From: Oceanispirochaeta sp. | Lineage (GTDB): Bacteria > Spirochaetota > Spirochaetia > DSM-2461 | Assembly: GCA_963666275.2 (NCBI GenBank) | Contig: CAXXOA010000001.1 | Location: 2,496,001 to 2,560,000, forward strand | DNA: 64,000 nt | Direction of reading: 5' to 3' | Shown: positions 35,296-39,081 of the stretch, piece after piece | Layout of the letters: every line of letters begins with the position of its first letter | Position numbering within the stretch: the stretch's first letter is position 1 | Made by a program: the position numbers and the translations under genes | Notes under the pieces: generated by a model | Database searches by the model: none | Told to the model about the DNA's origin: nothing | Seen by the model: only the letters and a program-made list of their open reading frames with translations

Positions 35296-35386
35296 AGAGG
35301 ACCAGCCCTTCCGGTACGGAAAGATTGGAAAATCAGCTATTATACAGTCCCCGGCAGAAGGATTCGGGAATATGAGGTTCAGCCTC

Positions 35387-35416
35387 TTGCCTGAGACCGG
35401 GGAACTCTCCTATAAT
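35387..35416 (+). promoter_or_regulatory. Candidate sigma70 promoter for the RRM gene
   Basis: TTGCCT-N18-TATAAT. Confidence 0.5.
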
Positions 35417-35572
35417 AGCGTCAGTTCTATTAAATTTAAGTATTACATATTTCCTGTATCATAACAGTTCCGATTTTTTCCAATTTCGAATTATTATCAT
35501 CATATAAGGTTTAAGAAGTACTTGGTTAATTAACTAAATGAAAAACCGGGTATTTCCGGACAAGGAGTAGCT

Positions 35573-35851
35573 ATGTCTACAAAACTTTATGTGGGTAACA
35601 TGAATTACAAAACTATGGAAGATGATCTGGGAGAACTGTTCGCCCAGTTCGGTGATGTTGAAAATGTCATTATCATTACCGACAGGGAAACCAACAGATC
35701 CAAAGGATTCGGTTTTGTCGAAATGGCCGAGAAAGAAGCGGCTGACGAAGCGATCAAAGGTCTCAATGAGACCACATGGATGGACAGAAAAATCGTGGTA
35801 AATCAGGCCAGAGAACGGACTGAAAGACCCAGATACAACGATAACTATTAA
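35573..35851 (+). CDS. RNA recognition motif (RRM) RNA-binding protein
   Basis: RNP2 LYVGNM and RNP1 KGFGFVEM. Confidence 0.95.
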   Translation: MSTKLYVGNMNYKTMEDDLGELFAQFGDVENVIIITDRETNRSKGFGFVEMAEKEAADEAIKGLNETTWMDRKIVVNQARERTERPRYNDNY

Positions 35852-35870
35852 TTTCAGCGATCCTGAATAG

Positions 35871-35902
35871 AAGGCAGCCGGTTCATCCGGCTGTTTTTTT
35901 TT
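35871..35902 (+). terminator. Rho-independent terminator
   Basis: GGCAGCCGG-TTCAT-CCGGCTGTT followed by a T-run. Confidence 0.85.
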
Positions 35903-35968
35903 TGCTTTAAAAAAACGGCATCACATCGACTCAGTCCTGAAACCTGTCGTGATCGGCCGATTATTCCC

Positions 35969-35997
35969 TTGCCCAAACCCGGAGCTGGTATTATAGT
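35969..35997 (+). promoter_or_regulatory. Candidate sigma70 promoter of the leader-RNHCP-rsgA operon
   Basis: TTGCCC-N17-TATAGT just after the RRM terminator. Confidence 0.55.
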
Positions 35998-36029
35998 AAA
36001 GTTATATCTGATGACCTGAGGAGGCGTTC

Positions 36030-36080
36030 ATGTCAATATTTGTATCCCAGGATGTTCCTGTTCAGGGAATCGCCGGGTAA
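36030..36080 (+). CDS. Putative regulatory leader peptide MSIFVSQDVPVQGIAG
   Basis: Strong GAGGAGG SD 5 nt before ATG; 16 codons; its sequence is complementary to downstream UTR segments. Confidence 0.6.
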   Translation: MSIFVSQDVPVQGIAG

Positions 36081-36179
36081 CAAACCTTTCCCCTTCCCTA
36101 CAAGAAAAATCTCATAATCCTTTCTATTTGAACAGGACATCATTTCCCGACTCTTTTTTTGATAACAACAGGAGTTGGT

Positions 36180-36569
36180 ATGTCCAGACAAACAATAACT
36201 GACAACCGGGAACATCACAGCTACCGGGAAAACCAGGCATTTCTCTGCCGCCATTGCGGGATGACCGTACCCCCCGCTGAATTCGGTTCCCGTCAGAGGA
36301 ATCACTGTCCCCACTGCCTCTGGAGTCTTCATGTGGACCTGAAAAAGGGAGACCGCCGCAGCGGCTGCCGGGGTTTGATGGAGCCCATAAGCGTCTGGGT
36401 GAAGCCCTCTTCCGAGTGGGCTGTGATTCACAGATGCCGCAGCTGCGGTTTTATCCGAACCAACAGGATCGCCGGTGACGACAACGAGGGAATCCTTTTG
36501 AAACTGGCCGCAAGGCCTCTGACAATGCTGCCCTTCCCGGCAGAGAAAACATGGGAGAAAATACTATGA
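36180..36569 (+). CDS. RNHCP-domain zinc-binding protein
   Basis: FLCRHCG, QRNHCPHCLWSLHVD, GDR...CRGLM, HRCRSCG, NRIAGDDN; AGGAG RBS. Confidence 0.9.
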   Translation: MSRQTITDNREHHSYRENQAFLCRHCGMTVPPAEFGSRQRNHCPHCLWSLHVDLKKGDRRSGCRGLMEPISVWVKPSSEWAVIHRCRSCGFIRTNRIAGDDNEGILLKLAARPLTMLPFPAEKTWEKIL

Positions 36570-37678
36570 CAGAAAAGAAACGTACAGAACTTGAAGCCTC
36601 CCTCTCCCCCTGGGGGTGGAACAGCAGATGGCAGGCCCTCCGGGAAGCCGGCGGCACTCCGGATCTTCTTCCCGGCAGGATCACAACCGAATCCAGGCAG
36701 ATCTACACTGTGGAGGGCCCCGAAGGCCCTGTCACAGCCGGGATCAGCGGAGCCTATCACTACAGGGCGGTCCTCCGCTCTGACTACCCCGCCGTGGGAG
36801 ACTGGATTCTGTATAAACCCTCCGACGGAAACAAAGGGGTGATAGAGCAGCTGCTGCCCCGGCAGAGCTGTTTTTCCCGTAAAACCGCGGGAGAGCGGAC
36901 GGAGGAACAGATAATTGCCGCCAATATAGATACGGTTCTGCTTGTATTCGGCATCAACGGGGGAAGGAATTTCACATCAGGGGGGCTGGAGAGGTACCTG
37001 ACCCTGGCCTGGGAGAGCGGTGCTGTGCCTGTGGTAGTCCTGAACAAGGCGGACCTCTGTTCTGCCGAGGAGCGGGAAAAAGCCCTTCTGACCGCAGAGA
37101 ACTCTGCGCCGGGGGTCAGCATCTATGAGGTAAGCGCCCTAACCGGAGAGGGTCTGGAGGGTCTGACAGGCAGTATCTCCCCGGGGAGCACAGTTGCTCT
37201 CACAGGGCCTTCGGGTGTGGGGAAATCCACCATAATCAATGCTCTGGCCGGGCGGGAACTGCAGAAAACCACCTCCCAGAGGGAGGGGGATCTGAAGGGA
37301 CGCCACACAACCACCCGGAAAGAGATGTTCCGTCTGCCCGGCGGTCTGATCCTCATCGATACGCCGGGACTGAAGGAAATTCAGCTCTGGGCTTCCGAGG
37401 AGGCCCTGGCGGAAACCTTCGACGATATTGCCCTGCTGGCCCGGGAGTGCCGTTTTAAAGACTGCACCCACAGGGGGGAACCGGGCTGTGCCGTCCAGCA
37501 GGCCCTCAGCCGGGGGGAGCTGGAACACAGGCGCTATGAGAACTATCTGAATATGGAAAAGGAGCTGAACTATCTGAAAACCAGGCAGGACAGCCAGGCG
37601 GCCAGGATGGAGAGAGAAAAATGGAAAGGCATTGCCAAAATCCAGAAAGACCTGAAGAAACAGAATAAAAGGTCTTGA
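36566..37678 (+). CDS. rsgA: Ribosome small subunit-dependent GTPase A family (RsgA paralog type)
   Basis: Circularly permuted GTPase (NKAD, GPSGVGKST, GRHTTT, DTPG) plus CRFKDCTHRGEPGC zinc finger; ATGA-coupled to RNHCP. Confidence 0.9.
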   Translation: MTEKKRTELEASLSPWGWNSRWQALREAGGTPDLLPGRITTESRQIYTVEGPEGPVTAGISGAYHYRAVLRSDYPAVGDWILYKPSDGNKGVIEQLLPRQSCFSRKTAGERTEEQIIAANIDTVLLVFGINGGRNFTSGGLERYLTLAWESGAVPVVVLNKADLCSAEEREKALLTAENSAPGVSIYEVSALTGEGLEGLTGSISPGSTVALTGPSGVGKSTIINALAGRELQKTTSQREGDLKGRHTTTRKEMFRLPGGLILIDTPGLKEIQLWASEEALAETFDDIALLARECRFKDCTHRGEPGCAVQQALSRGELEHRRYENYLNMEKELNYLKTRQDSQAARMEREKWKGIAKIQKDLKKQNKRS

Positions 37679-37711
37679 AAAAAAAACAGGATTGTTCAAT
37701 AGTTAGTACAG

Positions 37712-37795
37712 ATGAAGAAAAACCAGACTTTACAGAACCTGCTCAGCCTACTACTAGGACTCCTACTCCGGAGCCCCATGGGTTGGTGCAGCTGA
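37712..37795 (+). CDS. Leucine attenuator leader peptide MKKNQTLQNLLSLLLGLLLRSPMGWCS
   Basis: 9 Leu codons including CTA CTA CTA, upstream of a terminator and leuA. Confidence 0.85.
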   Translation: MKKNQTLQNLLSLLLGLLLRSPMGWCS

Positions 37796-37826
37796 CTGGT
37801 TTGATTTTTAATCAATAAGCAAGTTC

Positions 37827-37858
37827 AAAGGCCATGGGAATCTCCCATGGCCTTTTTT
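37827..37858 (+). terminator. Attenuator terminator of the leuA leader
   Basis: AAAGGCCATGGGA-ATC-TCCCATGGCCTTT followed by T-run; CCCATGG in the leader can pair with the 5' arm (antiterminator). Confidence 0.88.
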
Positions 37859-37941
37859 ATTCTGCCTGATCCGTCCGGACACAGCGCAGATCCTGCCGGC
37901 CGGGGGAGAAAAAACCAATCCCCTGAGCCCGGGAGGAAAAG

Positions 37942-39081
37942 ATGAAACGTATTGCCGTATTTGACACCACATTAAGAGACGGAGAGCAGGTACCGGGAGC
38001 CAAACTGGCTGCGAAAGAGAAGCTCCTCCTGGCCCGGCAGCTGGAAAAACTGGGGGTGGATGTGATCGAAGCGGGATTTCCCGCCTCCTCTCCGGGGGAC
38101 GCCGAAGCGGTCAGGATGATTGCCGGGAGTGTGAAGACTCCGGTGATTACAGGACTGGCCCGTGCCGTAAAAGAAGACATCGATATCCTCTGGGAGTCGG
38201 TCCGCTACGCCGAACGGCCGCGGATCCACATTGTCCTGGGCAGTTCGGATATTCATATGAATAACAAGTTTAAAAAGGACAGAGAGGCCATGCTTGAAAT
38301 GGCCGTGGAAGCCGTGGCCTATGCGGCGCAGAAGTGCCCGGATGTGCAGTACTCGCCCGAGGATGCCACCAGAAGCGATCCGGAGTATCTGATCCGGGTG
38401 ATCCGGGAGGTCATCAAAGCCGGCGCCTCGGTGATCAATATTGCCGATACCGTGGGATGGGCGGTTCCCGATGAGTTCGGCAGCCTTATCAGAACCATCA
38501 GGCAGAGTGTTCCCGAACTGGAAGAGAAGACCCTGAGTGTCCACTGCCACAACGACTGCGGTCTGGCCACGGCCAATACCCTGGCGGCGGTGAAAAACGG
38601 CGCCGACCAGATCGAAGTGACCATGAACGGCATGGGTGAGCGGGCCGGGAACGCCGCCCTGGAGGAGACTGTCATGATCATGGGAACCCGGAGCGATTAC
38701 TACAGAGCTTCAACGGGCATACAGCACCGTCTGCTCGTCCCCACCAGCCGGATGGTTCAGCAGCAGATGGGCATTCCCGTTCAGGTGAACAAAGCCATTG
38801 TGGGGCAGAATGCCTTCCGTCACTCCTCGGGAATCCATCAGGACGGGATCCTCAAGAACCGGGAGAACTATGAGATCATCAGCCCCGAAATGGTGGGGGC
38901 CGTCCCCCATGAGTTTATCCTAACAGCCCGGTCGGGACGCCATGCGGTCCGCCATGTACTGGACAAAGCCGGAATAGGACTGGCCGAATCGGACTTTGAA
39001 CTGGTCTTTCAAAAATTCCTTCTTATGGCGGATTCCCGTAAAGAGGTGAAACTGGAACAGCTTCTGGGCCTGGTTAGCTGA
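37942..39081 (+). CDS. leuA: 2-isopropylmalate synthase, short form without C-terminal regulatory domain
   Basis: DTTLRDGEQ, HCHNDCGLA, GERAGNAALEE, HSSGIHQDG; only 379 aa; Leu attenuator upstream. Confidence 0.85.
   Translation: MKRIAVFDTTLRDGEQVPGAKLAAKEKLLLARQLEKLGVDVIEAGFPASSPGDAEAVRMIAGSVKTPVITGLARAVKEDIDILWESVRYAERPRIHIVLGSSDIHMNNKFKKDREAMLEMAVEAVAYAAQKCPDVQYSPEDATRSDPEYLIRVIREVIKAGASVINIADTVGWAVPDEFGSLIRTIRQSVPELEEKTLSVHCHNDCGLATANTLAAVKNGADQIEVTMNGMGERAGNAALEETVMIMGTRSDYYRASTGIQHRLLVPTSRMVQQQMGIPVQVNKAIVGQNAFRHSSGIHQDGILKNRENYEIISPEMVGAVPHEFILTARSGRHAVRHVLDKAGIGLAESDFELVFQKFLLMADSRKEVKLEQLLGLVS

Follow-up and report, generated by a model that had tools for sequence, protein, structure and literature searches.

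What controls the RNHCP-rsgA2 operon of Oceanispirochaeta sp., in which genes for a small RNHCP-domain protein and for a second RsgA-family GTPase lie behind a leader with a short upstream open reading frame (uORF)? The operon is part of a 64,000-nucleotide stretch of contig CAXXOA010000001.1 (assembly GCA_963666275.2, positions 2,496,001 to 2,560,000 of the forward strand), hereafter the window, in whose numbering all coordinates are given. An earlier note on this DNA had read the leader as ErmCL-like, i.e. with a drug-stalled ribosome unmasking the Shine-Dalgarno (SD) sequence of the RNHCP gene. We find that a conserved uORF-containing translational switch ahead of RNHCP-rsgA2 is real, and that it is best explained, with a probability of about 0.6 in our estimate, as a ribosome-mediated translational switch with a polarity inverse to that of ermC. 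In contrast to textbook drug-stall attenuators, such a switch would affect translation alone, and it is predicted to open most fully when its uORF is empty or blocked at the first codons. The papers searched assign no role to the second rsgA found in many bacteria, and a leader that couples RNHCP and RsgA2 to ribosome performance offers a handle on their function; should RsgA2 protect translation in the presence of drugs, paralogous ribosome GTPases would confer intrinsic resistance at the small subunit as well as at the large one.

RNHCP was present in 40 of 121 related genomes. We examined 55 spirochaete loci, of which 50 remained after removal of 5 duplicates: one RsgA-RNHCP fusion, 6 loci with RNHCP behind rsgA2 and 43 with RNHCP first. 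These relatives are not independent of each other, and counts over them, here and below, are not to be read as probabilities. A uORF passing our filter (a GGAGG-led frame of 8-25 codons) precedes RNHCP in 40 of the 43 RNHCP-first loci (L009 among them; L numbers are our own locus handles), while the same filter is passed by 16 of the 1,612 window-genome genes that have free space upstream. A core family of 29 leaders, 27 once two near-copies are removed, has in common a segment 1 within the uORF and a segment 2 downstream (Table 1). In 29/29 core leaders the first base of segment 1 lies at +21 or +22 of the uORF, just past the footprint of a ribosome sitting on the uORF start codon. The helix between the two segments, P1, which in the window copy has 12 pairs and one bulged T, was recovered unprompted by RNAalifold; in 22 leaders it is paired in 93.4% of cells, with double changes at 6 of its 13 pairs (0 of 500 shuffles; slid controls, 35-48%). 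Duplexes between uORF and downstream sequence reach z < -2 in 32 of 38 leaders, the bulged base is kept in 22/27 and an unpaired A-rich motif in 18/27. The conserved uORF and covarying stems that the earlier note had proposed looking for upstream of RNHCP-rsgA operons are therefore there, and free-living spirochaetes are the range over which the uORF and its competing hairpins are conserved.

Segment 2 has a second partner, which the earlier note had missed: its GGACAT (36135-36140) is complementary to the RNHCP start, ATGTCC. The motif GAACAGG[AG]CAT of segment 2 occurs in 22/27 core leaders, and the second codon of RNHCP is TCC in 26/27 core genes. Several controls bear on this last figure. 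Beyond codon 3 there are 23 other conserved degenerate columns, at which the majority codon has a share of 0.26-0.63; TCC follows the start in 15 of 210 Met-Ser starts of the window genome, and none of the 6 RNHCP genes that lie behind rsgA2 starts with Met-Ser. When segment 1 is left out, local folding places segment 2 on the AUG in 24/27 leaders with a median gain of -5.9 kcal/mol; in the window copy, the local hairpin passes from -11.2 to -17.0 kcal/mol once segment 2 joins. Sequence comparison thus shows segment 2 to be complementary to both segment 1 and the RNHCP start, each of the three elements being conserved at the nucleotide level.

The consequences of this double complementarity were modelled in 23 core leaders, of up to 260 bases, by keeping unpaired the footprint of a ribosome (-13 to +17). 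With no ribosome, or with a ribosome on codon 1, the probability of P1 is above 0.5 in 21 of 23 leaders and that of the segment 2:start helix in 1 of 23. With a ribosome on codon 8, segment 2:start is above 0.5 in 18 of 23, and the probability that the start codon is unpaired drops from 0.42 to 0.13. Loss of P1 in the latter state follows by construction; capture of the start codon does not. Counting changes in opening energy above 0.5 kcal/mol, a late ribosome raised it in 19 and lowered it in 3 of the 27 core leaders, and raised it in 6 and lowered it in 2 of 11 divergent leaders. It has been reported that the 30S toeprint lies 16 bases beyond the A of the start codon (PMC9226507; here and below, published work is cited from the portion of its text that was available). 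With segment 1 starting at +21 or +22, a ribosome held on codon 1 would therefore leave segment 1 free.

We then modelled a second set, 22 spirochaete leaders in which no intact RNHCP comes first, picked by eye from 34 loci; the other 12 loci were left out since they have no uORF that passes the filter or are cut short, except L253, which has a uORF and no clear segment 2, and L165, which has a different SD. For 21 of these 22 leaders the opening energy increased by more than 0.5 kcal/mol, and for none did it fall (mean +3.6). Several of them (L175, L177, L179, L184, L183 and L232) are unrelated in sequence, have segment 1 at a later point of the uORF and use segment 2 itself as the anti-SD. 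Pooling 58 leaders at one late codon gave a mean change of +2.0 kcal/mol, with 41 rising and 11 falling, whereas 232 shuffled versions of the uORF body averaged -0.33, with 78 rising and 101 falling; the real value lay above all four of a leader's own shuffles in 38 of 58 cases, about 12 being expected. Thus, across the family, efficient translation of the uORF is predicted to turn the operon OFF, the ensemble of the window copy itself being flat.

Natural variants point in the same direction. In six loci that have lost RNHCP (L148, L191-L193, L247 and L248), the regulated start is kept as a mini-ORF before rsgA2. That start remains ATGTCC in L148, L247 and L248; in L191 and L193 both sides are altered together (GGAACAT with ATGTTC), while L192 has GGAGCAT with ATGTTC. 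Since the regulated start outlives RNHCP, these loci suggest that rsgA2 is the main regulated target and that RNHCP is dispensable.

A number of points weigh against this interpretation. The ensemble of the window copy is nearly flat, with an opening energy of 13.1-14.4 kcal/mol at all ribosome positions, the sign of its change varies with the boundaries chosen, and its start codon is unpaired with probabilities of 0.68 and 0.52 in the two modelled states. Its P2, the hairpin over the RNHCP SD, is strong enough to bury the SD even in the modelled ON state, so that this state may be weak, kinetic or in need of another factor; equilibrium folding takes no account of kinetics. Over the pooled set, 11 of 58 leaders shift the opposite way by more than 0.5 kcal/mol, and the second set was, as said, chosen by eye. 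The segment 2:start helix is 95.5% paired in the 22-row alignment, yet it shows invariance only and no covariation there; three genomes, related to each other, account for its single clean double change. Tested by shuffling, the pairing of segment 2 with the start region passed in only 11 of 38 leaders, segment 2 having been defined too broadly in what was a poor design. Individual loci also deviate: L245, of the same genus, has retained the leader, yet only CAT/ATG is matched at its rsgA2 start, and its modelled change is +0.2; L253 has a uORF and no clear segment 2; and segment 1 is found at +28 in L159 and at +61 in L247.

Is it the peptide or the RNA that is conserved? The earlier note had likened the uORF product to ErmCL on account of its SIFV. 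This likeness does not extend to the relatives: IFV occurs in 1 of 27 core leaders, that of the window alone, and an R/K-x-R/K motif in none of the 27. Segment 1 is translated as DVPVQ in 14, as M[FC]LF in 7 and in GV/RV forms in 6 of these leaders, being read in one frame in 21/29 and in another in 8/29. As the same segment is read in two frames, it is the RNA and not the peptide that is conserved. Codons 4 and 5 are loosely constrained (I or F at codon 4 in 26/27, with a T-ending codon in 25/27; V at codon 5 in 20/27). The pairing that the note had drawn between segment 1 and AACAGGA beside the RNHCP SD can form in the window copy, but AACAGG is found at that place in only 3/27 leaders. The proposed polarity, stalling that unmasks the SD, was likewise not borne out in modelling, where closure of the RNHCP start is the predicted effect of a ribosome on codons 4-12.

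The features of the locus are listed in Table 1. The promoter, uORF, helices and overlapping genes described in the earlier note all lie where it had placed them. On its own, the promoter match is at chance level (4 in the window, 2.6 +/- 1.7 in shuffles); a similar match is found in 14/27 related leaders, -59 to -66 relative to the uORF start, and transcription would begin near 36004. As a whole, the window leader folds with z -1.98, 9 of 200 shuffles being as good. In minimum-energy folds P1 closes a multibranch loop in which the inner helix P1a sits, P1a not being recovered in the alignment consensus, and GAACA of segment 2, which would be left free, could serve as a toehold. P2 alone is worth -11.2 kcal/mol in the window copy, and its counterparts, which differ in sequence between species, reach z < -1.64 in 17/27 relatives. 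A seven-T run (36154-36160) was considered as part of a terminator and rejected since it lies inside P2; no terminator-like (intrinsic) site was found between 36003 and 36180. RNHCP and rsgA2 are coupled by an ATGA overlap at 36566-36569. Upstream, a gene for a single-RRM RNA-binding protein (PF00076) occupies 35573-35899 including its own terminator at 35869-35899 and is not part of the operon. Rfam returned 7 weak matches in 35300-38200, none of them near the gathering threshold and none on the leader.

Table 1 Features of the RNHCP-rsgA2 locus, in window coordinates.
Feature	Coordinates	Strand	Remarks
Candidate sigma-70-type promoter, TTGCCC-17-TATAGT	35969..35997	+	TTGCCC 35969-35974, TATAGT 35992-35997
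SD of the uORF, GAGGAGG	36018..36024	+	
Candidate sensor uORF, 16 codons	36030..36080	+	MSIFVSQDVPVQGIAG, then stop; 11-17 codons in relatives, peptide loosely kept
Segment 1, 5' arm of helix P1	36051..36063	+	GATGTTCCTGTTC; starts at +22 of the uORF
Inner helix P1a	36064..36092	+	AGGGAA 36064-36069 with TTTCCC 36087-36092; minimum-energy folds
Segment 2	36130..36141	+	GAACAGGACATC; partner of segment 1 or, through its GGACAT part, of the RNHCP start
Hairpin P2	36147..36178	+	CCGACTCTT 36147-36155 with AGGAGTTGG 36170-36178; covers the RNHCP SD
RNHCP start, ATGTCC	36180..36185	+	Proposed regulated target of segment 2
RNHCP-domain protein gene, 129 amino acids	36180..36569	+	PF12647, E 5e-38
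rsgA2, second RsgA-family GTPase gene, 370 amino acids	36566..37678	+	PF03193, E 2e-46

In the mechanism that we favour, ribosomes travelling through the uORF would cover segment 1, upon which segment 2 would pair with ATGTCC and lengthen P2 over SD and start codon (OFF). When no ribosome reaches codon 3-4, P1 would form and withdraw segment 2, and the start codon would be freed (ON, or less OFF). The trigger may be either a shortage of active ribosomes or drug arrest at the uORF start codon, as might be expected of tetracycline, pleuromutilins, lincosamides and streptogramin A; tetracycline and the drugs that act on vmlR- and cplR-type leaders stall at start codons (PMC12121999, in its discussion of toiL). 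Translation of RNHCP would then bring rsgA2 along through the ATGA overlap, RsgA2 possibly being a GTPase that is induced by stress and matures or reactivates 30S subunits, and RNHCP its dispensable zinc-ribbon partner. The same RNA switch might also work as a homeostat of ribosome supply, in which the uORF reports the frequency of 30S initiation, the operon adds 30S maturation capacity in the cold, in recovery from starvation or upon assembly defects, and induction by antibiotics is incidental. Several observations are compatible with it: our model cannot separate an empty uORF from arrest on codon 1 (P1 above 0.5 in 21/23 in both), no arrest motif is conserved in the 27 leaders, RsgA is a late 30S maturation factor (PMC5499641), the Streptomyces coelicolor rsgA paralog SCO6149 is named among cold-shock-regulated genes (bioRxiv 10.1101/2025.04.11.648403), a uORF of S. 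meliloti has been proposed to monitor ribosome availability (PMC12218461), and no resistance gene recurs among RNHCP neighbours in the 51 of 65 cluster representatives scanned. We nevertheless regard it as unlikely, because the tight +21/+22 offset of the core family, needed for start-codon arrest, would be superfluous in a pure supply sensor, because scarce ribosomes would also restrict initiation on RNHCP, and because SCO6149 shares a regulon with tetM, hflX and arfB (PMC7157823).

The near-invariance of P1 down to its bulged base (22/27), together with the A-rich motif (18/27), goes beyond what pairing needs, and RNHCP is itself small and a putative zinc-ribbon protein; the P1 multibranch structure might thus be bound by RNHCP, RsgA2 or a ribosomal protein, which would control the start, the uORF being secondary. 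We find such autoregulation rather improbable: leaders of unrelated sequence have the same topology, the leader survives the loss of RNHCP, and the three-way pairing constraint accounts for much of the invariance. Nor does the leader resemble the genome's own 16S rRNA, at least in local alignment (z 0.0 for the window leader; z above 2 in 5 of 58 leaders, whose mean is 0.07). The ermC-like model, in which a macrolide-type drug would stall the ribosome on IFV and unmask the RNHCP SD, has become quite improbable, in spite of a four-segment layout that resembles ermC, the possible pairing of segment 1 beside the SD in the window copy, the loose [IF]-V of codons 4-5 and the 11 of 58 leaders in which a late ribosome lowers the opening energy. 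Beyond the lack of shared peptide motifs, the two reading frames and the rarity of AACAGG near the SD described above, freed segment 2 directly adjoins the anti-SD arm and cannot pair with it, pairing with the start codon instead; and for ermC to be induced its leader has to be translated (PMC5118997), whereas modelling has the RNHCP leader at its most open when no ribosome is present. Least probable of all, in our view, is that the main action is on transcription or mRNA survival, through Rho termination or decay after a block of RNHCP translation, with P2 always closed and the translational change small. This would agree with the strength of P2 in both modelled states of the window copy and has a parallel in toiL-topAI, where repression of translation followed by Rho termination was demonstrated (PMC12121999), but conservation is centred on the start codon itself and no intrinsic terminator was found in the leader.

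How does the switch that we propose relate to known systems? The leader belongs to none of the families with which it was compared. With the whiB7/wblC uORF attenuator (bioRxiv 10.1101/2023.06.02.543512) it would share the logic that efficient uORF translation is off and inefficient translation on, and a broad sensitivity to translation stress; whiB7, however, uses an intrinsic terminator and encodes a transcription factor, while the RNHCP leader, in which no whiB7-type terminator/antiterminator pair was found and which has no terminator match, gates SD and start codon. The DUF1127 leader of S. meliloti (PMC12218461) is induced by initiation arrest or an empty uORF, as modelled here, but works by Rho-dependent transcription attenuation through a rut-like element and serves other genes. 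Like those of vmlR and cplR (PMC9226507, PMC10201436), the RNHCP leader combines a short uORF, preceded by an SD of its own, with a hairpin that hides the downstream SD, and start-codon-stalling drugs may be its inducers. In vmlR and cplR, by contrast, the stalled ribosome itself opens the structure and mutation of the uORF start abolishes expression, where we predict constitutive expression; they also differ in having terminators, uORFs of about three codons and ABCF targets. Common to ermCL-ermC (PMC5118997) are a uORF and alternative helices that gate a downstream ribosome-binding site without a terminator; the RNHCP leader, however, lacks a conserved arrest peptide, has the opposite modelled polarity and does not control a methyltransferase. 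HflXr of Listeria monocytogenes (PMC6310831) is likewise a second ribosome-associated GTPase behind a uORF leader, beside a housekeeping copy. It differs in acting on stalled 70S ribosomes, in its RLR leader with transcription attenuation and in its proven role in resistance, while RsgA2 belongs, by its sequence, to a 30S factor family; the supplements of that paper, in the portion available, contain no rsgA entry.

RsgA2 belongs to the RsgA family (PF03193, 158 bits with a cut-off of 30; TIGR00157, 168 bits with a cut-off of 100) and falls below the cut-offs of two lineage-specific PRK models. It has the OB fold, permuted G motifs, switch-1 histidine and zinc finger of that family, and over 56 sequences N-K-D, the G216-K220 loop, H247, D265-G268 and C295/C300/H302/C308 are invariant; a catalytic role has been described for the switch-1 histidine of RsgA (PMC5499641). 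The best fold matches of its structure model are RsgA (E 3e-25), and the model ends in a single long basic helix (residues 321-369). Past the zinc motif, the median tail length is 61 residues for 67 RsgA2 proteins and 34 for 24 others. A second rsgA, the housekeeping copy that the earlier note had thought worth a search, is present elsewhere in the genome and is 35-36% identical to rsgA2. We take it to be the housekeeping gene because it groups with short-tailed copies and lies behind an ORF that is presumably glutamate racemase. In a tree of 54 rows (from 95), 34 RsgA2-labelled rows lie on one side of a branch with support 99/98, its bootstrap not fully settled, and members of the clade come from spirochaetes, Bacillota, Actinomycetota and a Vibrio plasmid. 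Rows were labelled according to how similar they are to the two copies of the window genome, so that this clustering is partly expected; and since both copies of one actinobacterium (G503) fall within the clade, not every member is accessory. Among Lachnospiraceae, L066:1236-2816 carries a GNAT-RsgA2 fusion followed by RNHCP.

The RNHCP protein matches PF12647 with 129 bits (cut-off 24), and C23, C26, R40, N41, H42, C43, C46, H51, C63, H84, C86 and C89 are invariant in 70 sequences. These include eight Cys/His-type ligand positions plus His42/51/84, and the protein may hold two zinc sites. Its structure model (pLDDT, the predicted local distance difference test score, of 82) had no Foldseek match at E <= 0.001, the weak rows being zinc-ribbon subunits of RNA polymerase at E >= 0.08, a best VIA Z of 3.2 and no usable Atlas match; neither result shows a new fold. 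The association with RsgA, which the earlier note had drawn from this one operon, is general: among the best 120 of 622 long RNHCP homologues, 111 also carry an RsgA domain, and RsgA is the sole recurrent translation-related neighbour of RNHCP in the 51 of 65 cluster representatives scanned. Four RNHCP-RsgA fusions in the tree lie outside the RsgA2 clade, and the best matches of 112 fusions divide 63 to 49 between RsgA2 and the other group. The link of RNHCP is therefore with RsgA in general. Also among the best 120 of the 622 are fusions of RNHCP to YoaP-like (6) and hexapeptide-repeat (2) domains, as well as six proteins that score like two or more repeats, two motifs being found in 2/112. 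A Streptomyces plasmid (L203:1994-3464) has two tandem RNHCP genes, then a gene annotated FBP domain-containing.

We also asked where else the leader occurs. The nearest named loci come from metagenome-assembled genomes of spirochaetes, first among them an Oceanispirochaeta sp. The window genome holds one exact copy of the motif and no second uORF of this kind. Searching 401 genomes of the phylum with a 16-base pattern gave mostly chance matches; of 11 exact-match loci retrieved, one precedes RNHCP-rsgA2 (L189), three precede rsgA2 (L191-L193) and 7 have neither gene. A metagenome scan that allowed synonymous codons gave 37 loci, 32 of them unrelated and 5 true leaders, which all use the same codons and lie before RNHCP or its remnant; there is therefore no evidence, within these 37 loci, of such a leader serving erm, ABC-F or hflX genes. 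A literature search, mostly without subscription papers, found no paper dealing with the leader, the biology of RNHCP or the control of rsgA by a uORF, and the RNHCP-rsgA2 leader is apparently unpublished.

Beyond spirochaetes, a plasmid collection provided 14 loci with rsgA2 first, 8 of which have a uORF by our filter; all 8 were modelled. In five, from Listeria (L199), Streptomyces (L201 and L264), Brevibacillus (L202) and Bacillus (L266), opening energy rises by 3.2-7.7 kcal/mol, each above at least 9 of 10 shuffles; in the other three it does not. The idea put forward in the earlier note, that an rsgA paralog is induced by antibiotic stress, has a precedent in SCO6149, the second rsgA of S. 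coelicolor beside SCO5211, whose expression under tetracycline is 68.4-fold WblC-dependent, with a chromatin immunoprecipitation peak of 29.0 (PMC7157823); induction there is transcriptional, through WblC, which sets it apart from the leader described here. SCO6149 may belong to the RsgA2 clade; synteny with the SCO6149-SCO6150 pair was not seen in the open reading frames of four actinobacterial loci. More tentatively, RsgA2 might be a cross-phylum, translation-stress-induced factor for 30S rescue or protection, a small-subunit counterpart of HflXr with RNHCP as cofactor, and the unrelated leaders of spirochaetes, Listeria, Bacillales and Actinobacteria might have converged on, or kept, the same inverse switch; we consider this possible rather than probable.

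Further observations were made on these and other loci. In Listeria monocytogenes, rsgA2 adjoins pnp and rpsO, and the 18-codon uORF before it (L199:2345-2401) has a 3' hairpin that competes with an SD-hiding hairpin (modelled rise, 6.2 kcal/mol). The actinobacterial rsgA2 uORFs (L201:2304-2372; L205, about 160 bases before rsgA2) encode a common peptide of 22-23 residues ending in SRAPV, which we take to be reminiscent of RAPP-type arrest motifs. Two plasmid records, L267:2004-3526 and L269, have rsgA2 directly before a fosfomycin thiol-transferase gene. RsgA-like matches occur in 194 of the 72,556 records of the plasmid collection, 70 from Rhizobium and 18 from Streptomyces, several of these records being chromosome-sized. 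Gut Bacillota and Eggerthellaceae (L017, L047, L048 and L059) share another kind of leader hairpin, CCGGGAGG ... CTCCCAAA, which precedes RNHCP by about 100 bases, and in two Pseudomonadales loci with no adjacent rsgA (L050 and L063) short uORFs beginning [MV]TTQ[EA]IV lie 140-200 bases before RNHCP. Finally, downstream of rsgA2 in the window, 37712-37855 encodes a leucine-rich leader peptide (MKKNQTLQNLLSLLLGLLLRSPMGWCS, then stop) followed by a terminator-like hairpin (37827-37855), ahead of an HMGL-like (LeuA-like) gene at 37942, and looks like a classical leucine attenuator.

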